A stretch of DNA of 64,000 nucleotides from an uncultured Alphaproteobacteria bacterium (GCA_949297665.1 CASFTO010000090.1:33378-97377), one strand, 5' to 3'; positions 7,705-59,091 are shown, numbered from the stretch's first letter. Notes: a model not told the origin generated them from the sequence alone. Numbers and translations: made by a program.

Positions 7705-9051
7705 ATGAATATAACTCAAGAATCAATAACTATAAAAAAATATTCTCTTGTTAAAGGCATACTTACTAATTCTTGTAATAAAAAATTTTTTAATCAAATA
7801 GATGCTCTTATTTTAAAAAAATATTTTGACAATGCTTACGAGTATTCCCTAACAGAAAATATAGAAAGAATTAATGCTCATAATTTATCGTTTAACGATA
7901 TCAATAAAATTATAGATAATTTTATGTGTTGCGTTGAAAATCTATCTATTTTTCACAATCGTAGTTTATTTGAAATGGTAAAACTTTCTTTTTTGCCTTC
8001 GAAAAAATTAAATAGAGTTATTTCAATTGATACTTACGCTAAATTGGCAGCATATTTACATTATGTTTCACATGAAACAAATAAATTAAGTTTTGATTTT
8101 TTAATCCTAAGAATAACCGATAATTTATTATTAAAAATAAAAAATATTAATAATACAGATTTATCATCTACTTATAATAAATTAAAATCTGCTATCTTGG
8201 ATAAAATGATTATCTACGCTTATACCCCAGAAAAAAGAGGAAATGAAGCAACTATTTTATGTTGGATTGATAGATTATTATATGCTGTTATTGAAAAAGA
8301 AATAGATCTAGATTCTTTTATCATTTTATCTAAAAAAATTTTAGAAATAACGTCTAAATCAATTTATATTTATTGGAAGTTAATAAATGCTATCGACTAC
8401 CTATTATCTCAAAAGGATTATCATTCTTTCTCCAGTCTTAGAAAATATAAATCAGATTTGCAAAAATATATTGATGAAAAATATTTATATCTCAATTTAT
8501 CAACGGATGAATTGCAAAATATCTTCGTTAGTCTTCTAGCTAAACAAAATATTGTAAAAGAAGATTATTATTCTTTTTTTGAAGTATTAGCATCTTTTGC
8601 AAAAAAATCAGCTAGTAATAAATTATTTTGCCTTAAGTTATGTGACTATTTATTATATTTTAACCAGAAAAAACAAATCTTTGGTTATCGCTTTATTCGT
8701 AAATATTTTGTAGATGTATTACTTTCGTTATTTCATAAAAATGATTTGATAAATGTAAAAAATAAAGAACTGCAAATGCTAATTGAATTGTGGTTTAATG
8801 ATGCTTTTTTTTGTTTTGAAAGAAAAAGGTTGCTTTTTAGTATTGTTAATATTCTTAAATCTATTAATACTAATGATGCTAAATTAAGTCATAATAATTT
8901 TTATAAATATTGTGATATTTTAGATTATATTTTAGCAACCAGCCATGATAATGACTTTGCTGATATTATTGATTTTTTAGCTTTCAATAATGAAAATAAA
9001 AGCAAAATTGCAAAATACTTTAAGCTCACCAATTTGCGCAAAAATATTTAA
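7705..9051 (+). CDS. Hypothetical protein, very AT-rich, Asn/Lys/Ile/Leu-rich, no recognised domain
   Basis: 448 aa intact ORF, diverging from mnmG across a 164 bp AT-rich spacer. Composition is much more AT-rich than the neighbours. Its stop codon is embedded in a copy of the TTTAAATACA motif. Confidence 0.55.
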   Translation: MNITQESITIKKYSLVKGILTNSCNKKFFNQIDALILKKYFDNAYEYSLTENIERINAHNLSFNDINKIIDNFMCCVENLSIFHNRSLFEMVKLSFLPSKKLNRVISIDTYAKLAAYLHYVSHETNKLSFDFLILRITDNLLLKIKNINNTDLSSTYNKLKSAILDKMIIYAYTPEKRGNEATILCWIDRLLYAVIEKEIDLDSFIILSKKILEITSKSIYIYWKLINAIDYLLSQKDYHSFSSLRKYKSDLQKYIDEKYLYLNLSTDELQNIFVSLLAKQNIVKEDYYSFFEVLASFAKKSASNKLFCLKLCDYLLYFNQKKQIFGYRFIRKYFVDVLLSLFHKNDLINVKNKELQMLIELWFNDAFFCFERKRLLFSIVNILKSINTNDAKLSHNNFYKYCDILDYILATSHDNDFADIIDFLAFNNENKSKIAKYFKLTNLRKNI

Positions 9052-9059
9052 ATACACCG

Positions 9060-10448
9060 TTATTTTCCTATACAAAAACTTCCAAAAATATTGTTTAGTA
9101 TTTCACTAACTTCAACACATCCTGTTATTTTTCCAATAGCTCTGCAGGCAAGTCTGATATCCTCCGTAGCAAGTTCTATTTCTTTATCTAAATTAAAAAT
9201 CTCAAGATTTTCTAGACACTCTTCAAGAGCCTCCCTATATCTCATTCTGGTTATTAAACAATTTGAAGATAAAGAAAAATTATCTTTTATAGTTTCTATA
9301 ATGGCAGTTGTCAGAATATCAATTCCTTGATTGTATTTTGCAGATATTTTTATATGGTTCTTTTTTTCTATATTATTCTTAAGTGATACTTTATCGATTT
9401 TATTTGCTACATAAAATACCTTTCCGTGAAAATCTTTTAGAGCTTTAAATTCACTGTTTTTATTCGTAGAAGCATCATATAATGCGATTACGATATCGGC
9501 TTCGGATATTTTTTCTTTAGCAATTTCTATTCCTTGTTTTTCTATAGGATTCTCAGTTTCTCTTATCCCGGCTGTATCAGTTATTATTACAGGATACCCC
9601 CCCATATCTAAATTTATATCTATTGCATCACGCGTTGTACCGGCTATATCCGATACAATAACAGCGTTTCTTTTAACCAATGCATTTATTAAACTTGACT
9701 TTCCCGCATTCGTTTCTCCGGCAATTACTATGCGAAAACCATTTCTTAAACGCTCATTAACATTGTTTTTTTGTAAATGTTTTGCTATTTCTTTTTTCAC
9801 TTTAAATACAGTGTTTAAAATATCTTCACTCAAATTTTCAGGTATATCTTCTTCCGGGAAATCAATAAATGCTTCAAGATATGTTAAAACTTTTACCAAA
9901 TCTTCACGCCATGATGTATATAAATATCTTAAGTTTCCTTCCATTTGTTGCAATGCATATTTTTGCTGCATAGATGTTTCTGCATCAATTAAATCAGCAA
10001 GACCTTCTGCCTCCGTTAAGTCCATTTTTTGATTATAAAACGAACGTTTTGAAAATTCTCCAGGCTCAGCTAATCGAACATTATCAAATTCACTTAGCGC
10101 ATCCAAAATGCTTGATAGTACAGCTTTTGAACCGTGACATTGTATTTCGGCAATATCTTCGCCTGTAAAAGAATAGGGGGCCTTAAAGTATATAACCAAT
10201 GCTTTATCCAAAAGTTCTTGTGTATTCTTTTTCTTTATGTCGGTAAAGTAAGCATGGCGTTGCTTAATCGTTGCAATATTTATATTTGTCATTTGCGATA
10301 TTACATTCAGAACCTCTTCACCTGAAATTCTTATTACGGCAACACCTGACTTTCCATAAACAGTCGATAAAGCATATATTGTTGATGAAGACATTTTTAC
10401 TCCTTTTCTTTTTTTTCTTATAAGTAGCTTTTTTTGTATATTACGCAA
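9060..10448 (-). CDS. mnmE: tRNA modification GTPase MnmE (TrmE)
   Basis: G-domain motifs GETNAGKSSL and DTAG; C-terminal CIGK tetrapeptide at the very end. Confidence 0.9.
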   Translation of the reverse strand: MRNIQKKLLIRKKRKGVKMSSSTIYALSTVYGKSGVAVIRISGEEVLNVISQMTNINIATIKQRHAYFTDIKKKNTQELLDKALVIYFKAPYSFTGEDIAEIQCHGSKAVLSSILDALSEFDNVRLAEPGEFSKRSFYNQKMDLTEAEGLADLIDAETSMQQKYALQQMEGNLRYLYTSWREDLVKVLTYLEAFIDFPEEDIPENLSEDILNTVFKVKKEIAKHLQKNNVNERLRNGFRIVIAGETNAGKSSLINALVKRNAVIVSDIAGTTRDAIDINLDMGGYPVIITDTAGIRETENPIEKQGIEIAKEKISEADIVIALYDASTNKNSEFKALKDFHGKVFYVANKIDKVSLKNNIEKKNHIKISAKYNQGIDILTTAIIETIKDNFSLSSNCLITRMRYREALEECLENLEIFNLDKEIELATEDIRLACRAIGKITGCVEVSEILNNIFGSFCIGK

Positions 10449-10525
10449 TAAAAATTTATTTCTCTATATAAAATTATTCAAATTTTAATGTTTCTGATTT
10501 TATTTTGTTTCTGAAAGGAGATCAG

Positions 10526-11533
10526 ATGAATTCGGTTCGTATTGCTTTCTTTGATATTGCTAAATTTATTGCCATGATGATGGTTATTTTAGGACACTTT
10601 GGTGTACCGGATATAAATCGATTTGTTTTTACTTTTCATATTCCTCTTTTTTTTCTTATCAGTGGATATTTTTTTACCCCTTATGAAAAAACTTTTTCTC
10701 TTTTGAAAATTAAAGCCAGGCAGCTTCTTGTTCCCTATTTGACTGTCATGTTTGCTGTTATTTTTATTTATATCTGTCAAAATTTTCTCGAAGGATATTC
10801 GGCTAAAAATACACTAATAGGGGTTATGGATTATTTTATCGGCTATTTATATGGTAGCGGTTATATTGATGACTTTTTAGGACAGCATATCGAAATTGTC
10901 GGACCGATTTGGTTTTGTTTAGCTCTTTTTTGGGATTTTATTTTACTTAATTACTTCTTAAAAACTAAACATCCTTTTGTGGGAATCTTATTATGTTTTA
11001 CGGTTGGATATGTATCAAGCTTTTTTATATGGCTTCCGCTTAGTATTCAATCTGCTCTGACATCTTTGCTTTTTTTCTATTTGGGATATCAATCTAAAAT
11101 TCACGATTTTTTCAATAAATCTATCCATGTGTCGCGAATTTTACCCTTATTGTGTATTTGGGGGGTTGGATTAAGTTATGGTAGTCAATTTCTAATTGTG
11201 CAAAATTTTGCGGTTTCTTTAGTTAGTGATGTTATTGTTGCTCTCGCCGCTTGTTATTTGGTTTTACTTTATTGCCAATGGTTAGAACATAATACTAAAT
11301 CTGCAAAAATTATGGCTTTTTTGGGGAGATACACAATTGTTATGCTTTGTTTTCATAGTATTGATGTCAATATTATGCCGTGGAATGAATATTTCAAAAC
11401 GCCAAATACAACCAGTACTGTTATTTTGATAAAAATATTGATTACTTTTATTAAATTTTTGTTTCCTATATTTGGCGCTTTAATTGTTGCAAAATCTTCA
11501 ATATTAAGGAAATTCTTTGCTTTGAAAAATTAG
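10526..11533 (+). CDS. Acyltransferase 3 family integral membrane protein (OafA/OpgC-like)
   Basis: Multi-TM protein with N-terminal [18 protein letters not shown] and FFLISGYFF signatures of the acyltransferase_3 family. RBS AAGGAG precedes the ATG at 10526. The ORF track starts earlier at 10505. Confidence 0.75.
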
Positions 11534-12783
11534 CTGTTCATATTATCAAAGAAATCGCGGTTATCTTTCGATTGACGCAACTTATCAAGTAAAAATTCCA
11601 TTCCGTCGGTCATACCCATTTGCATCAAAACACGGCGCAATACCCACATTTTTGTTAAAGTTGCTTTATCAACCAGTAATTCTTCTTTTCTGGTGCCTGA
11701 ACGTGTTATATCAATTGTCGGGAATAATCGCTTATCCGTTAATTTTCTATCCAAGATAATTTCTGAGTTACCTGTTCCTTTGAATTCTTCAAAAATAACT
11801 TCATCCATTCTTGAACCGGTATCTATCAAAGCGGTTGCAATTATTGTTAAAGAACCTCCTTCTTCAACATTTCGAGCTGCACCTAATAATCTTTTCGGGC
11901 GTTGTAGAGCATTCGCATCTACGCCACCCGTTAAAACTTTTCCAGATGATGGTAAAACCGTATTATAAGCTCTACCTAAACGAGTTATTGAATCCAACAA
12001 AATGACAACATCTTTTTTAGTTTCAACCAAACGTTTTGCTTTCTCTATAACCATTTCTGCAACTTGCACATGACGAACAGCTGGTTCATCAAAAGTTGAC
12101 GATATAACTTCTCCTTTAACTGAACGTGTCATATCAGTAACTTCTTCGGGGCGTTCGTCTATTAATAAAACTATTAAGTAAATTTCCGGATGATTTATTG
12201 CAATGGCATGCGCTATATTTTGCAACATTACCGTTTTACCAGTTCTAGGCGGAGCGACGATTAATCCGCGTTGTCCTTTTCCTTGCGGTGATATTAAATC
12301 AATAACTCGTGTTGTATAATCCTTTTCTCCGCAAATTATATCAAAATTCAGTTTTTCCGTCGGATATAGCGGTGTTAAATTATCAAAATTTATGCGCAGT
12401 TTAGATTTTTCCGGATCATCGTAGTTGATTGTATTTATTTTAGTTAGCGCGAAATATCTTTCATTTTCTTTTGGGGCTCTAATTTCGCCTTCAACAGTAT
12501 CTCCGGTTCTTAATCCATAGCGTTTAACTTGTTGAGGGGATACATATATGTCGTCTGCTGATGCTAGATAATTTGATTTTGATGAACGTAAAAAACCAAA
12601 ACCGTCTTGCATTACTTCTATAACACCATCGCCATAAAGTATGTGATCGTCTTCAGCAACTTTTTTCATAATGGCAAAAATTAAGTCTTGAACACGCATG
12701 GATGATGCGTCTTCTACTCCCAACTCTTCCGCTTGACTTAAGAGTTGTTTGGGAGATTTATCCTTTAAATCTTTTAAATGCAT
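11530..12783 (-). CDS. rho: Transcription termination factor Rho
   Basis: 417 aa; Walker A PPRTGKT; RNA-binding N-terminus; high similarity pattern to Rho. Confidence 0.95.
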
Positions 12784-51383: not shown

Positions 51384-52073
51384 TTATTTCTCCAGTTGAT
51401 TAAATTCTTTTAGAGCCAGACGTATTAATGTTCCTAAATCAGCTTTAGGATTATTTAAGCAAATTTCTGTGGCAACACGATAAGCATCGATTTTTTGATA
51501 TCCTAAATTGGTTAAGGCTGAAGTTACGTCTTCTGTGTTATTATAGGTTTGACTTTCTGTATCTTCTGTATCAGAGATTTTTGATGGGGAAACTTTGGCT
51601 GTTGTTTCTTCTGCGCTTACTTCTGTGAATTGTGCTTTTTCTATATCCGAGGTTCCCATATATTCAACGGGAATGGTGACAATTTTATCTTTTAATTCCG
51701 TTACTAATCGTGCAGCCAATTTGGGACCGACACCTGAAGCTCTGAGAAAAGAACTTTTATCTTGTGCGGCAACGGCTTGCGATAGTTGTGCCGGTGATAA
51801 TGCACTTAATATACTTAAGCAAACTTTTCCTCCAACGCCTTGTATTTTGGTCAGAGTGTTAAACCATTCCTTTTCCCACGGATTTTGAAAACCGAACAGT
51901 GTTATACTATCTTCTTTTATTACAGTTTCTATTAATAAAGAAGCATATTCGCTTTGTTTTAGTTTTGAAAGTGATCGAGATGACATGTTGACGAGGTAGC
52001 CAACCCCGTTTACGTCTATGATGCAACAGTCTTCTCCTATGTTGTCAATAATTCCTTTTAATTTTGCTATCAT
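51384..52073 (-). CDS. ruvA: Holliday junction DNA helicase RuvA
   Basis: [10 protein letters not shown]-terminus with RBS AAAGGA. The ORF track extends 17 codons further, to 52124. Confidence 0.9.
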
Positions 52074-52209
52074 CTTTTTTCCTTTGTTTTTTGTAAGTCT
52101 AAAGGTCTTTTTGTCGGCCTTCAAGTGTTTTTTTATATAACCCCCTTTTATTCGTGGTTTTGATGGTTATATCCGTGATGATGTTTAAACATTATTAAAG
52201 GATGTAAGG

Positions 52210-53355
52210 ATGAAAGAATGTAAGGTGTTTATTTTAGCTTTATTGTGTTTTATGGGGACGGAAAATGCCGGTGCGGAAAGTTTAATATCTGAGTATCAGC
52301 AGTTTAAAAATAATCTTAATCAAAAATACGGGTTTGATTATAATGTTGATGTTTCCGTATTAGGACAGCGAACCAGTCCAAGTGGTAAAAATAATGCGGT
52401 TCAAGCATATATTTATCCCGAATTTTCTTGGACGACTTTTGATAATCATTATGGTACCGGGACTTTAAATTTTGCTTATACAATTATTCGTTACGGAAAT
52501 CATAATGCAAATGATTTAGCGGGTAATTCCGGCTTTGTTACGGGAATTAATGATTATACCAATGACGAAAATCAGTTTGATGAACTCTATTATACTTATC
52601 AATTACCGGCGAATTGGAATTGGTTAACTTTTGCTCTCGGACAATTTCCTCTCTATAATTTTGACGGGACAAATTATGATTCTAATCAGCAAGTTAATTT
52701 CTTAAATGATTCTTTGGCACAAAACGCTTCGGCTTCATATTCTGATGCCGGTTTGGGTGGGTATGTGCAGATTACGCCTAATGATGAATGGAACTTTACG
52801 TTTGGTGGACAAGATGCTACAAATGTTGAGGCTCCCAGTATCCGTTTTAATCATTTGGATGAAAATCATTATACAACATTTGGATATGTTGCGTATACTC
52901 CCACTATTAAAGGTTTAGGGGATGCGGAAATTTCTTTGTTGGTATATAATCAACCGGCTGTTACAGAACAGCCTCAGACAACTAATGGGTGGTCGCTTAA
53001 TTTATCTCAAAATATTGGGGAAAAATTTAGTGTTTTTGCTCGTGTAAATGAAGTTAGCGGTAGTATGGAAGAAATTCGACAATCTTGGGTATTGGGAGGT
53101 GTTTATAACAATCCTTTAGATAGGAACCCTTTGGATCAAATAGGTTTAGCGTATGCTTATAATAAAATCGATGAAGCGGCTGTCGGTGAACAAATTTCTC
53201 ATAAGGCTGAACAAATTATAGAGGCGTATTGGGCGTGGGGAATTGGTGATATGTTGACGATTACTCCTGATGTGCAGTTGTATATTAATCCGGCGCTTAA
53301 TCAAAAATCTGATTATGGGGTGGTTACCAGTCTGCGTGCAACTGTGTTCTTTTAG
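52210..53355 (+). CDS. Outer-membrane porin (possibly OprB-like carbohydrate porin family)
   Basis: Signal peptide, beta-strand-rich sequence, C-terminal ...LRATVFF. The OprB-family assignment is tentative. Confidence 0.65.
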   Translation: MKECKVFILALLCFMGTENAGAESLISEYQQFKNNLNQKYGFDYNVDVSVLGQRTSPSGKNNAVQAYIYPEFSWTTFDNHYGTGTLNFAYTIIRYGNHNANDLAGNSGFVTGINDYTNDENQFDELYYTYQLPANWNWLTFALGQFPLYNFDGTNYDSNQQVNFLNDSLAQNASASYSDAGLGGYVQITPNDEWNFTFGGQDATNVEAPSIRFNHLDENHYTTFGYVAYTPTIKGLGDAEISLLVYNQPAVTEQPQTTNGWSLNLSQNIGEKFSVFARVNEVSGSMEEIRQSWVLGGVYNNPLDRNPLDQIGLAYAYNKIDEAAVGEQISHKAEQIIEAYWAWGIGDMLTITPDVQLYINPALNQKSDYGVVTSLRATVFF

Positions 53356-53415
53356 CCGATTGTTTTTACTTTTTTTGTTTCGACCTACTGTTGTTTGGGC
53401 AATGGTAGGTTTCTT

Positions 53416-53443
53416 TTTAAATACATTGTTTAAATACATCGTT
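53416..53443 (+). repeat. Tandem pair of the dispersed 15-mer TTTAAATACAYYGTT
   Basis: tttaaatacattgtt then ttaaatacatcgtt; other copies are listed in the findings. Confidence 0.85.
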
Positions 53444-53572
53444 TTTTCTTTTTTATTCATAAACGGCCTTTTTCGTTGTGTATTAATGGTATTTTCTTGA
53501 TGTTTCTTCTGTAAAAAAGGGGTATGTATTCGATATTAATTGAAGTTCTGGTAAGAGGTGAGTTTTTTTAAT

Positions 53573-54103
53573 ATGCGAAAGCTAGGATTGTTTGTTTTTA
53601 TAATGTTAATTTCTGCGTGTCAGTCTAAACAAGTTATTGTGCCGGCTGTTGTTCATAATGTTAGTACAACTCAGGAGGTTGTTGTGGAAAAAGCTCGTTT
53701 GCCGATTATCGGAGAAGTTGAACCAATTTATTTTTTACCGATGAAATCTCCGTTTGCTGCCAGAATTGATACCGGTGCGACAACGTCTTCTTTGGATTGT
53801 AATGATGTGGAATATTTTGAACGTGATGGCGAAAAATGGGTGTCCTTTAAACTTAAAAATCGTAAAACAGGTGAAGAACATTTGTTTGAAAAAAAAATTG
53901 AGCGTTCGTTTAAAGTTAAACGAGCCGGACAAGATGAGAGCCGTAAAGCTGTGAAAATGGATGTTAAAATGGGAGGAGAAGTCTTTTCTGCTGTTTTCTC
54001 TATCGCTGATAGATCTGATTTTGATTATCAAGGGTTAATCGGACGTAATATTTTAACAGGAAGATTTTTGGTTGATACATCTACTTCTTATACGCTGAAC
54101 TAA
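53573..54103 (+). CDS. Retropepsin-like (clan AA, DTGA-type) aspartic protease, lipoprotein
   Basis: Signal peptide with lipobox LISAC; catalytic AARIDTGATTSSL. The family is usually annotated as putative ATP-dependent zinc protease or clan_AA_DTGA. The ORF track starts at GTG 53558; the ATG at 53573 has RBS AAGAGGTGA. Confidence 0.65.
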   Translation: MRKLGLFVFIMLISACQSKQVIVPAVVHNVSTTQEVVVEKARLPIIGEVEPIYFLPMKSPFAARIDTGATTSSLDCNDVEYFERDGEKWVSFKLKNRKTGEEHLFEKKIERSFKVKRAGQDESRKAVKMDVKMGGEVFSAVFSIADRSDFDYQGLIGRNILTGRFLVDTSTSYTLN

Positions 54104-54112
54104 TTAGGATGA

Positions 54113-55663
54113 ATGATTATGAAACTAAATTTAACCAGATTTTTTACTATTAGAAAAGTTTTGAGTCTTTTGTTGATTTGTGCTGTAGGTTATGCAGCGT
54201 ATAGTATCTATTATAAGGTTAAATATTGGGGATTTTCTCTCTCTCCAAAGGCTGTTACTGATGTATGGACGGTAGATGCTAAAATTTCATTTAGGGCTCT
54301 TGGGGGAGATGTTAAAGTTTCTTTGGCTGTTCCAAATGATAGAGATGGTTTTAAAATCCTTAGTGAGGAAATTGTTGCTAAAGGTTATAAAATTACACAG
54401 GATAAAATTAATAGCCGTGTTGTCTTGGAGGGAAAGGATAAAGAAGGTAAGCAGAATCTGTATTATCGTTTGAGTATTTATGATGATGCGCAGAATGTTG
54501 CTCTTAATTCTTTGTTAGCAGCAAAAATCGATAGACCTATTTTATCTGAAGAAGAAACTATTCAAATGCGCAAAATTTGGGAATTGTCTGAGTTACAAAA
54601 AGGTGATAAAATCCAAAAGGCTATTTTGGCTATTAATCAAGAGGTTAATAATCCTACAATGAGTTTGATTCTGCCTCTTAATCATACAGCAAAAGAATTT
54701 GCGGAAAAAGTTATTCAGGTTTTGGCTTATAAAAGAATTCCTGCTCGTATTGCAAGAACGATTAAACTTGAGGAAGGGCGTAAAACCGAAAAGCCGGATA
54801 TTATGTTGGAGGCATATTATGACGGACATTGGACGCTTTATGATTTGAATACGGCTAAAATAGGGCTGCCTAAAAATTGGGTTATCATTCAAAGAGGCGG
54901 AGTTTCTCTTTTGGACGTTAAGGGGGGCGAGGATTCTACGGTCGTCTTCTCTGTTTTGAAATCGGTGGCTTCTCCTCTGAAAATGGCTGAGCATCGTGCT
55001 AAAGCTCATGATGAACTTTGGAGTTATAATTATTCTATGTATACTTTGCCGGTGTTTGAACAAAATACTTTAAAATGGTTGATGATTTTTCCTCTGGCGA
55101 TTTTAGTTGTTGTTATTATGCGTAATGTTATCGGTGTGTCTACCATGGGGACTTTTACTCCTATGTTGTTAGCTATGGCTCTGGTACGGACCGGATTTTG
55201 GCCGGGATTGATTTGTTTTTCGGTGATGATTGCTTTGGGTTTGGTTATGAGAGCTTTGGTGGCGAAATTGAATTTGTTATTGGTGCCGAGAATCTCTTTT
55301 GTTGTTATTTTTGTTATCTTACTTATTCAAGTTTTGACTGTTGTGGGCTATCGGCTTAATTATACAATTGTCAGTTCGGCTATTTTCTTCCCGATTATTA
55401 TTACCGCGTGGATTATTGAACGTGCTTCTATTACTTGGGAAGAAGAGGGGGCCGTTAATACTTTGAAAGAAATTTTGTTTACTTTTATAACGGCTGTTGT
55501 GACCTACTTTGTTATCAGTAATGAATATGTACGACATGTTATGTTTGCTTTTAATGAACTTAATTTGGTGATTTTATTTGTGGTTATGTTGTTGGGGACT
55601 TATACAGGTTATCGCGTAACGGAATTGATGCGCTTTGCACCGCTTATCCATAAGGAAAATTGA
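54113..55663 (+). CDS. Membrane protein: N-terminal inactive transglutaminase-like domain fused to a C-terminal 7-TM module
   Basis: N-terminal signal-anchor, a roughly 300 aa extracytoplasmic domain, then 6-7 hydrophobic helices (WLMIFPLAILVVVIM ... TYTGYRVTELMRF). The architecture and neighbourhood match the 7TM-transglutaminase partner of RimK-related ligases. Confidence 0.6.
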   Translation: MIMKLNLTRFFTIRKVLSLLLICAVGYAAYSIYYKVKYWGFSLSPKAVTDVWTVDAKISFRALGGDVKVSLAVPNDRDGFKILSEEIVAKGYKITQDKINSRVVLEGKDKEGKQNLYYRLSIYDDAQNVALNSLLAAKIDRPILSEEETIQMRKIWELSELQKGDKIQKAILAINQEVNNPTMSLILPLNHTAKEFAEKVIQVLAYKRIPARIARTIKLEEGRKTEKPDIMLEAYYDGHWTLYDLNTAKIGLPKNWVIIQRGGVSLLDVKGGEDSTVVFSVLKSVASPLKMAEHRAKAHDELWSYNYSMYTLPVFEQNTLKWLMIFPLAILVVVIMRNVIGVSTMGTFTPMLLAMALVRTGFWPGLICFSVMIALGLVMRALVAKLNLLLVPRISFVVIFVILLIQVLTVVGYRLNYTIVSSAIFFPIIITAWIIERASITWEEEGAVNTLKEILFTFITAVVTYFVISNEYVRHVMFAFNELNLVILFVVMLLGTYTGYRVTELMRFAPLIHKEN

Positions 55664-55664
55664 A

Positions 55665-56612
55665 ATGTTTGAGTGGCTCTTTAATGGAAAAAAATTGCGC
55701 GAAAACGGTGTGTTGGGGATGAACGATCGTAACTATTCGGTAATTGCAAAATATAATAAACGTTCTCTCTATACGCTGGTGGATGATAAAGTTAAAACGA
55801 AAAGATTAGCTAACAGTATCAATATTAATACGCCTAAAATGATTGGTATTATTGAATTCCAGTATCAGGTTAAAAATCTTTTGGATATTGTTAAGGGCTA
55901 CGATACTTTTGTGATTAAACCGGCTCACGGTAGCGGTGGAAAAGGTGTATTGGTAATAAAAAAATATGATGCGAAACATTTTTATAGTGCCTCAGGTGAT
56001 GTTTTGAGCTTTAAAGATGTTTACCAGCATGTTTCTAATACACTGAGCGGACTTTTTAGCTTAGGCGGAAAATATGATGTTGCGCTTATTGAAGAAGCTG
56101 TTAATTTTAGTGATGTGTTCAAAAATTTTAGTTATCATGGCGTACCGGATGTGCGCGTTATTGTCTATAAAGGTTTTCCGGCGATGGTGATGATGCGCTT
56201 GGCTACTAAAGAATCCGGCGGACGCGCTAATTTGCATCAGGGAGCTGTGGGCGTTGGCTTGGATGTCAGTACTGGTTTACCTCTTAATGCCGTTATGCAT
56301 AATAAACCTATTTTTGAACATCCTGATACAAAAGCGAATTTGATGGATTTGCGTGTACCGTTTTGGCGTGAACACTTGATTATCGGTTCTTTGGCCTATG
56401 ATATGACCGGTTTGGGATATTTGGGGGCGGATATTGTGTTAGATGAGAATCGTGGACCGATGATGTTGGAAGTTAATGCTCGTCCCGGGTTGGCTATCCA
56501 AATTGCGAACGGAAAAGGCTTGAAAACACGTTTGCAGGAAATTGATGAAAAGTATCCTTTGGGACTTTCTGCTGAAGAAAGAGTTGATTTTGTCTTGAAT
56601 CAAGGAAAATAA
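55665..56612 (+). CDS. Alpha-L-glutamate ligase-related (RimK-like) ATP-grasp protein
   Basis: ATP-grasp signatures IKPAHGSGGKGVLVI and ADIVLDENRGPMMLEVNARPGL. The likely start MFEWLF at 55665 abuts the stop of the 7TM gene. Confidence 0.75.
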   Translation: MFEWLFNGKKLRENGVLGMNDRNYSVIAKYNKRSLYTLVDDKVKTKRLANSININTPKMIGIIEFQYQVKNLLDIVKGYDTFVIKPAHGSGGKGVLVIKKYDAKHFYSASGDVLSFKDVYQHVSNTLSGLFSLGGKYDVALIEEAVNFSDVFKNFSYHGVPDVRVIVYKGFPAMVMMRLATKESGGRANLHQGAVGVGLDVSTGLPLNAVMHNKPIFEHPDTKANLMDLRVPFWREHLIIGSLAYDMTGLGYLGADIVLDENRGPMMLEVNARPGLAIQIANGKGLKTRLQEIDEKYPLGLSAEERVDFVLNQGK

Positions 56613-56782
56613 ATTCCTAAATATTAGCCAGAAATAAATTTTATTACGGAATATGTAGGGAGCTAATGATGTCTAATATTTTAGGAAAAAGTGAAACGAA
56701 AAGTTTGGATAAAAGTGATACGAAGAATTTAACCGCTGATGATACCAAAAAAATTGGTGTCAGCGAAACAAGAGGGAAAAAA

Positions 56783-57274
56783 ATGAAGTATTCTTATAAT
56801 GTGACAGACCCTGAAAATGCATTGGTTTTAAAACTCAAAGACGGGGATGTTGTTATTGAAATGTATCCCGATGCGGCACCAAATCATGTTGCAAGAATAA
56901 AAGAATTGGTTCGTCAAGGATTTTATAATGGCTTAAAATTTCACCGTGTTATTGAAGGTTTTATGGCGCAAACCGGATGCCCTTTAGGAAATGGAACTGG
57001 CGGTAGTGGTAAAAAGTTGAAAGCCGAATTTAATACAATTCCGCATACAAGAGGTATTGTTTCTATGGCGCGTGCTATGCATCCAGATTCAGCGGATAGT
57101 CAATTCTTTATTTGTTATGATGATTGTTCACATTTGGATGGGCAATACACTGTTTGGGGGAAAGTCGTTTCCGGTATGGAATTTGTTGATAAAATCAAAA
57201 AGGGCGATGGTTATAACGGTATGGTTAGCAAACCCGATGAAATTATCAGTATGCAGGTTATTGCAGATTTATAG
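56783..57274 (+). CDS. ppiB: Cyclophilin-type peptidyl-prolyl cis-trans isomerase
   Basis: FHRVIEGFMAQTGCP ... QFFICYDDCSHLDGQYTVWG. RBS AGAGGGA precedes the ATG at 56783. An in-frame upstream extension to 56666 encodes a Thr/Lys/Asp-rich tail of uncertain reality. Confidence 0.85.
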   Translation: MKYSYNVTDPENALVLKLKDGDVVIEMYPDAAPNHVARIKELVRQGFYNGLKFHRVIEGFMAQTGCPLGNGTGGSGKKLKAEFNTIPHTRGIVSMARAMHPDSADSQFFICYDDCSHLDGQYTVWGKVVSGMEFVDKIKKGDGYNGMVSKPDEIISMQVIADL

Positions 57275-57288
57275 GGGGATATAAATTT

Positions 57289-57318
57289 TTTGAAGGGCGT
57301 TCGAATGAGCGCCTTTTT
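57289..57318 (+). terminator. Intrinsic terminator after ppiB
   Basis: aagggcg-ttcgaatga-gcgcctt followed by TTTTT. Confidence 0.6.
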
Positions 57319-57331
57319 CTTTAAATGAATG

Positions 57332-57360
57332 TTGACAAAAAATATCTTGTATTTTAATGT
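57332..57360 (+). promoter_or_regulatory. Sigma70-like promoter, TTGACA then a 15-17 nt spacer then TTTAAT/TAATGT
   Basis: Consensus -35 with an AT-rich -10 about 40 nt upstream of the 57401 gene. Confidence 0.35.
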
Positions 57361-57400
57361 TTTGGCAAAATTAAATTATTGTAAAATCTAAAATTGTTAT

Positions 57401-58540
57401 GTGATGAAAAATACTATTTTAAAACAAGTCAATGCAATAGGTGCAGAACTTGTATTTCCATTTTATGTTTATCCCGATGGAACTTGCGGTAAATCAATAG
57501 CTTCAGGAAGGCTTAACGCAGTTATGGTGGTTAAAAAGAAATTTCCGGTTGAAGAACTTAAATCGGATTTTTTAACAGGTTCTCAAGGTTTGGATGAAAA
57601 TGTTTTGGCTCATTTGACCGAAATCGGTAATCAGTTGGGCTTTCTTTTTTATATCTATGCTGACGGAACGTGTGGTTTAACACCTTCTTCAACGCTGAAC
57701 AAATTTCCGTTTACGATGATGGTTAAAAAGCCGTTTGTTGTTAATCAGATGGTGATTGAGCCTGATGATGTTGTAAATTCTGTTTCTTCTACTGCTAAAA
57801 AAACAACCTCCTATCCTCATTCAATATGGACTTTGCCGGAGCCTCAGGTTTTTATGCCGACAGATGAAGAGTTAAAAATTCTTGAAAAAGCTCGGGAAAA
57901 AGTGCGGAAAAGAGGTTATTTAGACGAAGATACTGAAAGAGTTTATCTTTGTTTTTCTACAGATAAAGAATTTGAATATTTTGTTTTGAATAGAATTTTA
58001 TCAGGTTCTAACGAAAAATATATTCTTTTACGTGGAACGCAAGATTTGGTTAAAAAGTATGTTCTTAAGCATTGCTGGGATGATGCTGTTGTAGATCTTA
58101 TGGCGGAGCGTTGTTCTGATGACGTTATTTTAGCTTATTTTAGTAAGTGGCTTGTTCGTGTTAATGTAATAGAAAAATTACTAGAATTTGGGCGATTTGA
58201 GTTGATTGAGAAAATCCAAGAGGTTAGTTCTTTGGATGCTTGTAGGTTGTGTTCAGATAGGCATGTCGCCGCTATTATCAAAGCAGGTCATTCGGAATTG
58301 TTAAAAACACAAATTAAGAAACATGGTTTTCGTCATAAAGATGATGTCGAGGCACTTATTAAAACCGGAAATGTGGAGATGATAAAGTATTATTTGGATT
58401 ATCATTCTCTTTCTGAAAGTGCTCAAAAAGAGTTGATAGAGCTTGGTAACGCTCAGTTGGTTAAAATTTATCAAGAGCGATATGGTTTTTGCTCTGATTC
58501 TCTTAAATTGGCTAAATGGCGTGGGGTACTTTGTGCTTGA
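57401..58540 (+). CDS. Hypothetical protein with an N-terminal tandem duplication (about 45 aa modules carrying F-x-F-Y-[VI]-Y-x-D-G-T-C-G) and a helical C-terminal region
   Basis: Modules at residues about 10-55 and 70-115 (VFPFYVYPDGTCGKS / FLFYIYADGTCGLT, each followed by MVKK). No recognised domain. Confidence 0.6.
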   Translation: MMKNTILKQVNAIGAELVFPFYVYPDGTCGKSIASGRLNAVMVVKKKFPVEELKSDFLTGSQGLDENVLAHLTEIGNQLGFLFYIYADGTCGLTPSSTLNKFPFTMMVKKPFVVNQMVIEPDDVVNSVSSTAKKTTSYPHSIWTLPEPQVFMPTDEELKILEKAREKVRKRGYLDEDTERVYLCFSTDKEFEYFVLNRILSGSNEKYILLRGTQDLVKKYVLKHCWDDAVVDLMAERCSDDVILAYFSKWLVRVNVIEKLLEFGRFELIEKIQEVSSLDACRLCSDRHVAAIIKAGHSELLKTQIKKHGFRHKDDVEALIKTGNVEMIKYYLDYHSLSESAQKELIELGNAQLVKIYQERYGFCSDSLKLAKWRGVLCA

Positions 58541-58567
58541 TGTGACAACTTGGTTAATAATAAAAAG

Positions 58568-58600
58568 GCTTTCTTCTTATGAAGAGAGCCTTTTTGTTTG
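58568..58600. terminator. Bidirectional terminator between the 57401 gene and ruvC
   Basis: aggctttcttc-ttat-gaagagagcct followed by TTTTT. Confidence 0.65.
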
Positions 58601-58602
58601 GA

Positions 58603-59091
58603 TTATACCGCATGGTCTTTGTATGAATTGCGTAGATTGCAATGGGTTATTGCAATCGCTAAGGCGTCTGAAGAGTCATTGTTTTTAGGTTGACAGCCGG
58701 GGAGAAGAATTTTTACCATTGTTTCTACTTGGTTTTTATCTGCTTTTCCGACTCCGGTTAGCGCTTTTTTGATTTTGTTTGGTTCATATTCAAACAAAGG
58801 AATATTATAAAGTGTCGGCATTAAAAAAACGACACCTCTCGCCATACTTAATTTTAAAGAGGTTTCCGGGTTGGTGTTCAAAAATGTTATTTCTATTGAT
58901 GCTTCGTCGGGTTTGTATAGCTCAATTATTCTTTGAAGTTCCGTAAAAATCGTATGTAACCTCGTGGATAGGGATGCTTTTGCTGATGTCGGAATAAAAC
59001 CGTCTGCCACATAGGACAGACGGTTTCCGTTTATATCAATTATTCCCCAACCGGTGGAGGATATGCTCGGGTCTAAACCCAAAACACGCAT
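58603..59091 (-). CDS. ruvC: Crossover junction endodeoxyribonuclease RuvC
   Basis: 162 aa; N-terminal catalytic LGLDPS; RNase H-like fold. Confidence 0.9.
   Translation of the reverse strand: MRVLGLDPSISSTGWGIIDINGNRLSYVADGFIPTSAKASLSTRLHTIFTELQRIIELYKPDEASIEITFLNTNPETSLKLSMARGVVFLMPTLYNIPLFEYEPNKIKKALTGVGKADKNQVETMVKILLPGCQPKNNDSSDALAIAITHCNLRNSYKDHAV

Follow-up and report, generated by a model that had tools for sequence, protein, structure and literature searches.

A probable rloABC orthologue with a lipoprotein-type RloA protease in an uncultured gut/rumen alphaproteobacterium

Introduction

The rloABC operon of Pseudomonas aeruginosa (PA14_41690/41710/41730, equivalent to PA1768/PA1767/PA1766), described by Lormand et al. 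(mBio 2025, PMC12239564), encodes a secreted retropepsin-like protease, an inner-membrane protein in which an inactive transglutaminase domain is joined to seven transmembrane (7-TM) segments, and a cytoplasmic ATP-grasp protein. Three adjacent genes of the same kinds are present on a 64,000-nucleotide (nt) stretch of DNA from an uncultured Alphaproteobacteria bacterium (GCA_949297665.1, CASFTO010000090.1:33378-97377), hereafter called the window, with all positions counted from its first letter. Judged from sequence, this locus is very probably an orthologue of rloABC in an uncultured gut/rumen alphaproteobacterium. The present analysis establishes its gene structure, protein families, membrane topology, synteny, the loss of a Cys nucleophile from RloB, and the conservation of catalytic and poly-glutamate (poly-Glu) contact residues.

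A first-pass annotation of the window, made without database searches, held that no substrate, product or phenotype had been established for such a gene triad, a statement that is now out of date. In vitro, the P. aeruginosa protease, RloA(Pa), cuts runs of at least eight glutamates; residues D48, R114 and R137 are essential, and the R114A and R137A substitutions abolish both activity and complementation (PMC12239564). Loss of all three RloA paralogues of P. aeruginosa is lethal in salt-free (hypo-osmotic) medium and also impairs biofilm formation, tolerance to the beta-lactam ampicillin and cell shape, and the rloA defects are suppressed by deletion of rloB or rloC (PMC12239564), which places RloB and RloC upstream of RloA. 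P. aeruginosa encodes no periplasmic protein with at least eight consecutive glutamates, and CprS, its only poly-acidic candidate substrate, is not cleaved; poly-glutamylated RpsF is cleaved by RloA in vitro, and deletion of rimB shows no genetic interaction with rloA deletions (PMC12239564). In Vibrio cholerae the operon lies within the VxrAB cell-wall stress regulon, and the operon is described as widely conserved in Gammaproteobacteria, with Alphaproteobacteria receiving no mention in the main text (PMC12239564). Disruption of an RloB-type gene in Shewanella vesiculosa leads to hyper-vesiculation, and models for RloA and RloB are now included in NCBIfam.

A related pair of enzymes is RimK, which makes poly-alpha-Glu, and RimB, which trims it (Little et al., JBC 2025, PMC11957791). 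This system, which also includes RimA and acts on ribosomal protein S6 (RpsF), resembles the locus in that an ATP-grasp alpha-L-glutamate ligase is counterbalanced by a retropepsin-like endopeptidase that cuts poly-Glu. However, RimK/RimB is wholly cytoplasmic, without a membrane component, whereas here the protease is exported and a membrane protein is encoded between protease and ligase. RloC of the window also belongs to a different ligase subfamily (37.1 bits against a cut-off of 143.4 for TIGR00768, and 21.6 against 331 for PRK10446), while RloA reaches 56 bits with the RimB model (cut-off 200) and carries a lipoprotein signal. RimBK is reported to be present as well in most organisms that encode RloABC. 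In Gram-positive bacteria, the PgsBCA/CapBCA systems with PgdS/CapD use a ligase at the cytoplasmic face and membrane components to produce extracytoplasmic poly-Glu, which is then trimmed by an extracellular enzyme. The analogy is functional only, as PgsB is an amide ligase of the Mur-ligase type and not an ATP-grasp enzyme, and the linkage is gamma.

Compared with P. aeruginosa rloABC, the locus shows no difference in gene order or in the three domain architectures, and its genes are likewise tightly coupled: a secreted DTGA protease, RloA, with basic residues of the kind that bind poly-Glu; RloB, with an inactive transglutaminase-like periplasmic domain and 7 TM segments; and a cytoplasmic ATP-grasp protein, RloC, of the TIGR02291 family. 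The differences are the host, which belongs to a gut/rumen alphaproteobacterial lineage, the form of RloA, which is a lipoprotein rather than a protein with a type I signal, lacks the disulfide pair and is about 11 residues shorter in its flap, and the cyclophilin gene appended to the operon in this clade. The locus is therefore of a known kind, a divergent alphaproteobacterial, lipoprotein-type copy of a system characterized in 2025, and a claim of novelty fails.

Gene structure of the locus

The three genes are co-oriented on the plus strand, and the list of open reading frames (ORFs) shows all of them to be real and located where the first-pass annotation had placed them. The first, rloA (53573..54103), encodes a prelipoprotein of 176 amino acids (aa) that is a retropepsin-like aspartic endopeptidase (PF05618, 8e-28). 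It is followed by rloB (54119..55663), coding for an inner-membrane protein of 514 aa (PF14400 and PF14402), and by rloC (55665..56612), coding for a cytoplasmic, alpha-L-glutamate-ligase-like ATP-grasp ligase of 315 aa (TIGR02291 and PF14397). The predicted family memberships were borne out by profile searches, which matched PF05618, 7TM_transglut, Transglut_i_TM, ATPgrasp_ST and TIGR02291, and the motifs quoted beforehand (LISAC, IDTGATTS, IKPAHGSGGKG and EVNARPGL) are all found in the sequence; an expected match to clan_AA_DTGA was not obtained at E<=0.01.

The best-supported start of rloA is ATG 53573, in agreement with the public annotation of an identical metagenome contig (ENA). A GTG at 53558, lying within the Shine-Dalgarno-like sequence AGAGGTGAG, was considered as an alternative and dropped. 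For rloB, ATG 54119 has an AGGA 8 nt upstream and yields a protein identical to a 514 aa database entry (P0001), while a start at 54113 (516 aa) gives no exact database match, the real start being two codons downstream. The rloC start, ATG 55665, is preceded by AAGGAAA and follows the rloB stop codon (TGA, 55661-55663); TTG 55635 is unsupported as a start. With the starts adopted here, the intergenic gaps are 15 nt between rloA and rloB and 1 nt between rloB and rloC, so that the tight spacing reported earlier stands, as does its 1 bp gap, but the 9 bp gap becomes 15 nt. The genes are translationally coupled, which would keep RloB and RloC in a fixed ratio.

Conservation of the gene neighborhood

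A scan for RloB using one genome per species gave 231 genomes, of which the best 80 were gut/rumen alphaproteobacterial metagenome-assembled genomes (MAGs). The RloB of a MAG labeled 'uncultured Alphaproteobacteria' is 98% identical to that of the window. Genes of the window were mapped onto the best 80 of the 231 loci by tblastn, and the counts given here are limited to loci where the available sequence suffices. Within the clade, rloA lies upstream of rloB in all loci (77/77), rloC lies downstream of rloB in all loci (75/75), and the distance from rloB to rloC has a median of 2 nt. A cyclophilin gene is found downstream of rloC in 68/69 loci, and a porin gene upstream in 59/69.

Five lineages outside the clade, with RloB identities of 38-44%, were also inspected. 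The triad is present in four of them, three with intact genes and one (locus L087) with a truncated protease gene that lacks the DTG, while in the fifth the contig begins inside rloB, leaving rloB and rloC visible. The rloB and rloC genes overlap in all five. Flanking genes are visible in four of the lineages and differ among them, being a cation-efflux gene in one, Maf, a polysaccharide flippase and a sigma factor in another, LpxD/OmpH and a helicase in a third, and topoisomerase IV in the last. The triad also occurs, in the same order, in Aeromonas caviae and on a plasmid of Legionella adelaidensis, and in none of the seven non-clade loci is there a cyclophilin or porin gene beside it. The family as a whole comprises 1685 representative clusters at E<=1e-3. 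The triad is thus a conserved core, with the cyclophilin gene as a clade-specific addition and the porin gene as a looser neighbor, and the proposal that it forms a conserved neighborhood was confirmed in clade loci, distant lineages, Aeromonas and Legionella alike.

Some of the distant loci have features of their own. In L087 (310-618; 44% RloB identity), the gene preceding rloB specifies a protease of just 102 aa with no DTG region, while rloB and rloC look intact. The gene may be a decayed rloA, and if so this would be of note, since in Pseudomonas the presence of RloB and RloC makes the loss of RloA toxic. The Legionella adelaidensis triad (L086; plasmid 5, NZ_LR134414.1, 29382-32310) is carried on a 54-kb plasmid and adjoins two genes for C1-family cysteine peptidases, and its RloA homologue is annotated as a 'RimK/LysX family protein'. 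The Aeromonas caviae locus (L085; NZ_AP026896.1) is listed by PLSDB as a 'plasmid' but, at 4.9 Mb with 18 annotated features, is evidently a misfiled, chromosome-sized replicon; its RloA homologue (262 aa) has a lipobox and a long Gln-rich linker. In L088, a gene for a Wzx-like flippase (Polysacc_synt, 8543-9880) directly follows rloC, a single case that brings to mind 'sugar-transfer associated ATP-grasp', the name given by Pfam to the RloC family.

The RloC ligase

RloC matches the NCBIfam model TIGR02291 (rimK_rel_E_lig, 'alpha-L-glutamate ligase-like protein') with 412.6 bits, above the cut-off of 314.2, and the Pfam family PF14397 (ATPgrasp_ST) with an E-value of 2e-84. It shares 53% identity with the Aeromonas orthologue. 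Among 15 diverse orthologues from alphaproteobacteria, gammaproteobacteria and other groups, the ATP-grasp residues K85, GSGGKG, ANLHQGA, D256, E269 and N271 are invariant. The ATP-binding strand and glycine-rich loop IKPAHGSGGKG (55914..55946, plus strand) aligns to VKLVEGTQGIGV of RimK, and the Mg/ATP-binding motif LEVNARPGL (56466..56492, plus strand) aligns to MEVNASPGL of RimK. The RloC sequence has no visible signal peptide or TM segment.

The RloA protease

The NCBIfam models matched by RloA are RloA3 (104.6 bits), RloA2 (72 bits), RloA (63 bits) and RimB (56 bits), all of them below their narrow cut-offs, and searches of the PDB returned 9g59 (8e-16), 9g58 (4e-14) and 2pma (4e-5). The entries 9g58 and 9g59 are crystallized RloA orthologues and were aligned to the clade sequences. 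The protein begins with a hydrophobic signal peptide, MRKLGLFVFIMLISAC (53573..53620, plus strand), ending in the lipobox ISAC with Cys16 as the lipidation site. The catalytic DTGA motif (53768..53779, plus strand) occurs once per chain, and the active enzyme must therefore be a homodimer.

A lipobox-like Cys ends the signal peptide in 80/80 RloA sequences, that is, in 78 clade loci and in L001 and L002, which are copies of the window itself. Outside the clade, a lipobox is found in four of the five lineages with an intact N-terminus (L088, L090, L091 and the Aeromonas locus L085). Only for PA1768, the Pseudomonas RloA, is a type I signal listed. A lipoprotein RloA is thus common, and the first-pass description of this signal as unusual does not hold.

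Using RloA(Pa) numbering, as inferred through the 9g58 fragment, the residues D48-T-G-A, R114 and R137 are shared by all clade sequences that were aligned (79/79). The position of K46 is Arg in all clade sequences, and those of R92, K95 and K97 are mostly basic. In the window protein, the residues at the positions of K46, R92, R114 and R137 are all Arg.

The RloB membrane protein

RloB matches PF14402 (7TM_transglut, 4e-76) and PF14400 (Transglut_i_TM, 9e-27), and is matched from end to end by the NCBIfam model 'osmotic stress tolerance membrane protein RloB' (residues 16-512 against 11-506 of 508, 257.5 bits). Hydropathy and the positive-inside rule predict a cytoplasmic N-terminus, a TM segment at residues 14-32, a periplasmic domain of 289 residues, 7 TM segments (322-492) and a cytoplasmic tail. 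A confident AlphaFold2 model built on 89 homologues has a mean predicted local distance difference test score (pLDDT) of 91.5 and a predicted template modeling score (pTM) of 0.83. The periplasmic domain (residues 33-321; 54215..55081, plus strand) consists of a beta-sandwich and a transglutaminase-like fold, and the 7-TM bundle (55082..55594, plus strand) is the best-conserved part of the protein.

The periplasmic domain of RloB is free of Cys, and the alignment of 89 sequences shows no column of Cys, His or Asp that is conserved in it. An active transglutaminase or papain-like cysteine protease was considered and rejected, as there is no Cys-His-Asp triad. The same holds in comparison with the transglutaminase-like putative cysteine protease of Cytophaga hutchinsonii (3isr) and the periplasmic domain of P. 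aeruginosa TgpA (6g4h), whose Cys-His-Asp chemistry is impossible in the Cys-less RloB domain; unlike these, the RloB domain is fused to a 7-TM bundle. All 13 columns that are invariant across the family, R378, R391 and E434 among them, fall within the 7-TM bundle, loops included. A PDB sequence search with RloB gave chance-level matches only, and the 7-TM bundle showed no match to a transporter-like fold.

Flanking genes and transcription

The window carries a block of plus-strand genes between ruvA (51384-52124, minus strand) and ruvC (58603-59091, minus strand), consisting of the porin gene, rloABC, the cyclophilin gene and a gene for a repeat protein. The nature of these flanking genes is as the first-pass annotation had given it.

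The cyclophilin-type peptidyl-prolyl isomerase (PPIase) gene (56666..57274, plus strand; PF00160, 8e-45) lies close behind rloC, with a gap that has a median of 52 nt in the clade and is 27-75 nt in most loci. The protein has an N-terminal tail of 40 residues (56666..56785, plus strand) made up of about four [SA][ED]TKx[LI] repeats (KSETKSL, KSDTKNL, DDTKKI and SETRGK). The tail is maintained at the protein level across the clade, and a Shine-Dalgarno sequence, AGGGAG, precedes ATG 56666; as Ile frequently takes the place of the internal Met, translation has to include the tail. Overall identity among the clade cyclophilins is 68-98%, and a homologue search with the protein returned clade members only. 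In three relatives (L046-L048), about 0.75-1.1 kb separates rloC from the cyclophilin gene. In L047 (about 10505-11565), this space is occupied by two co-oriented genes, one for an HD-domain-like protein (208 aa) that starts directly after the rloC stop codon and one for a NUDIX-like protein (145 aa), and the cyclophilin gene is still found downstream of rloC despite the insertion.

Upstream of rloA is the gene for an OprB/AaxA-like outer-membrane porin (52210..53355, plus strand), matched by PF04966 (3e-15) in its C-terminal part only. Among NCBIfam models it is matched best by the chlamydial arginine porin AaxA (282 bits, cut-off 600). About 27 relatives have an additional 0.8-2.4 kb between the porin gene and rloA, which in the one case inspected (L043) contains a gene for a 312 aa protein on the opposite strand. 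Just after the porin stop codon is a terminator-like hairpin (53382..53411, plus strand), identified by consensus match only, in which a 13-bp stem is followed by a T-run TCTTTTTAAA, and this suggests that the porin gene is transcribed separately from rloABC. No terminator-like site was detected between rloA, rloB, rloC and the cyclophilin gene. Given the hairpin that ends the porin unit and the lack of such sites from rloA to the cyclophilin gene, the likely transcript is rloA-rloB-rloC(-ppi), and the cyclophilin gene is probably a clade-specific fourth gene co-transcribed with rloABC.

A promoter scan found sites that were no commoner than in shuffled sequence, and an Rfam scan of positions 51900-58700 gave no credible RNA element, and hence no riboswitch or leader 5' of rloA. 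A paralogue search confined to the window found no second copy of rloA, rloB or rloC, and PADLOC profiles for anti-phage defense gave no match at E<=0.01 to RloA, RloB, RloC or the repeat protein.

The repeat protein (379 aa; 57401-58540, plus strand) has no Pfam, NCBIfam or PADLOC match. It has two N-terminal FxFY[VI]YxDGTCG modules, about 64 aa apart, followed by C-terminal helical repeats. Its gene is confined to L005-L007, the three nearest genomes (RloB identity 94-98%), while relatives with 89-93% RloB identity lack it and have ruvC directly after the cyclophilin gene. In other relatives the slot between the cyclophilin gene and ruvC holds unrelated genes.

The ruvC and ruvA genes are usually contiguous, in a ruvCAB arrangement, and their separation in the window is evident from the ORF list. 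G+C content is flat over the block and its flanks (0.34-0.39). The ruvA-ruvB-ybgC genes lie upstream in about 45 of 80 loci, down to about 51% RloB identity, and ruvA-ruvB adjoins the porin gene in about 44 of the 59 clade loci with an upstream porin, while a downstream ruvC-yebC is limited to some closer relatives, those with RloB identities of about 70% or higher. The block does split ruvC from ruvA, as had been noted, but its description as an insertion, if taken to mean a recent one, is at odds with the flat G+C content and with the frequent position of ruvA-ruvB beside the porin gene.

Proposed mechanism and alternatives

In the model that we prefer, RloC would use ATP in the cytoplasm to form a Glu-rich product, which is most likely poly-alpha-L-glutamate and could be free or carrier-bound. 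RloB would be required for the action of this product at the envelope, most simply by exporting it or displaying it at the periplasmic face, where the lipid-anchored, homodimeric RloA, with its basic substrate channel, would cut periplasmic poly-Glu and so keep its level harmless. The net role would be envelope homeostasis, seen as osmotic tolerance, cell shape and wall integrity. The product would be non-encoded, since RloA is strictly specific for poly-Glu and encoded candidates are absent, both among the periplasmic proteins of P. aeruginosa and in the window, where no ORF of at least 100 aa specifies a run of five or more Glu or of seven or more Asp/Glu. We infer that RloC makes poly-Glu and that RloB exports it, and likewise that any part of the scheme would hold in the organism studied here. 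The earlier prediction of a ligase that adds residues, a protease that processes the product and a 7TM protein that anchors or exports it comes close to this model. We see the chances of this scheme of synthesis, export and trimming as evenly balanced, and orthology with rloABC taken together with the working model is likely to be the best overall explanation when set against its rivals.

Several points weigh against this interpretation. Even in Pseudomonas, the in vivo substrate of RloA and the activities of RloB and RloC are unsettled, and neither RloB nor RloC has any published biochemical activity (PMC12239564). Identity to the Aeromonas (not the Pseudomonas) orthologues is about 34% for RloA and about 31% for RloB, and the window proteins fall under the cut-offs of the NCBIfam models (104.6 against 210 bits for RloA3 and 257.5 against 900 for RloB), which are narrow equivalog or exception models; as such models are tuned to close Pseudomonas relatives, the scores are those of distant orthologues. 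The RloA flap is about 11 residues shorter in the clade than in 9g58/9g59, and a disulfide Cys of these structures is replaced by Lys in the window protein. A Cys pair after DTGA is absent clade-wide (0 or 1 Cys in 80/80 sequences), whereas the disulfide pair is reported to be conserved in periplasmic RloA orthologues (PMC12239564). Given the missing disulfide pair and the shorter flap, the substrate details of RloA may differ.

The main rival to export is that RloB signals inward, as an envelope sensor or regulator whose periplasmic domain would monitor the wall or periplasm and which would control RloC through its 7-TM bundle, with RloC modifying a cytoplasmic or membrane-face target and RloA cutting a separate periplasmic substrate or RloB itself. 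This would suit the poor conservation of the non-catalytic periplasmic domain and the strong conservation of the cytoplasmic loops and tail (ERxSIxWEExG and GYRxxELxRF), which could serve for docking of RloC, as well as the lack of a transporter-like fold match for the bundle and the place of the V. cholerae operon in a cell-wall stress regulon (VxrAB, PMC12239564). However, RloA is a periplasmic, poly-Glu-specific enzyme that the cell cannot safely lose unless RloB or RloC is missing too, a pattern most simply explained by an RloC-dependent product in the periplasm, and separate encoded substrates are hard to find, given that P. aeruginosa has no periplasmic protein with a run of at least eight Glu, that CprS is not cleaved and that the window has no poly-acidic run. 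We therefore regard a sensor role as rather unlikely. A purely cytoplasmic role like that of RimK/RimB, in polyglutamylation and trimming of ribosomal protein S6, could appeal to homology (56 bits of RloA to the RimB model, and a match of RloC to the RimK Pfam family at 2e-9) and to the cleavage of poly-glutamylated RpsF by RloA in vitro (PMC12239564), but it is very improbable in view of the lipoprotein signal of RloA, the membrane protein gene intercalated between the protease and ligase genes, the RloC score for the RimK family (37.1 bits against a cut-off of 143.4) compared with 412.6 bits for TIGR02291, and the lack of genetic interaction between rimB and rloA deletions (PMC12239564).

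Other alternatives turn on the neighboring genes. The first-pass annotation put forward the repeat protein, with its Y-x-Y-x-DGTCG modules, and the N-terminal tail of the cyclophilin as possible targets, such that the cassette would make or tag a peptide on a neighbor's product. The occurrence of the cyclophilin gene after rloC in 68/69 clade loci and the conserved, translated tail of 40 residues with its ETK-like repeats are consistent with this, but the repeat protein, being confined to the three nearest genomes and a variable slot, is not a credible conserved substrate. Nor is the cyclophilin a general Rlo substrate, as it accompanies the triad in none of the seven non-clade loci, lacks a signal peptide, so that periplasmic RloA could not reach it, and ends in ...VIADL, whereas RimK-type enzymes extend a C-terminal Glu (as RimK does on RpsF) and the repeat tail is N-terminal. 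It is also better conserved than RloB at the same loci (68-98% against 51-98% identity), in the manner of a housekeeping protein. A neighboring substrate is accordingly improbable, and it is only slightly less doubtful that the cytoplasmic clade cyclophilin, with its Lys/Glu/Thr-rich tail, was gained as a dedicated fourth rlo component, either as a substrate or regulator of RloC or as an assembly factor for RloB-RloC; were this so, it would provide the first clue to a protein partner or substrate of the Rlo ligase. Least credible of all is that the genes are adjacent by chance or form a recent mobile island. Although the block is oriented opposite to the ruvC and ruvA genes on either side of it, its G+C content matches that of its flanks, it adjoins ruvA-ruvB even in relatives with RloB identity as low as about 51%, the ORF list shows no integrase, tRNA or repeats, and the triad recurs in unrelated contexts, so that synteny refutes this explanation.

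Significance

The locus neither opens a new category nor answers the chemical questions raised by rlo, namely the product of RloC, the role of RloB and the in vivo target of RloA. In P. aeruginosa, rlo matters for osmotic tolerance, beta-lactam resistance, biofilm formation and cell shape. Comparison with the clade indicates that RloA can do without the disulfide and the long flap but not without D48, R114 and R137, and the invariant residues of RloB, all of which lie in the membrane bundle, provide targets for mutagenesis. The presence of the operon throughout a clade of host-associated Alphaproteobacteria with small genomes suggests that its envelope function is a core one and not peculiar to Pseudomonas.

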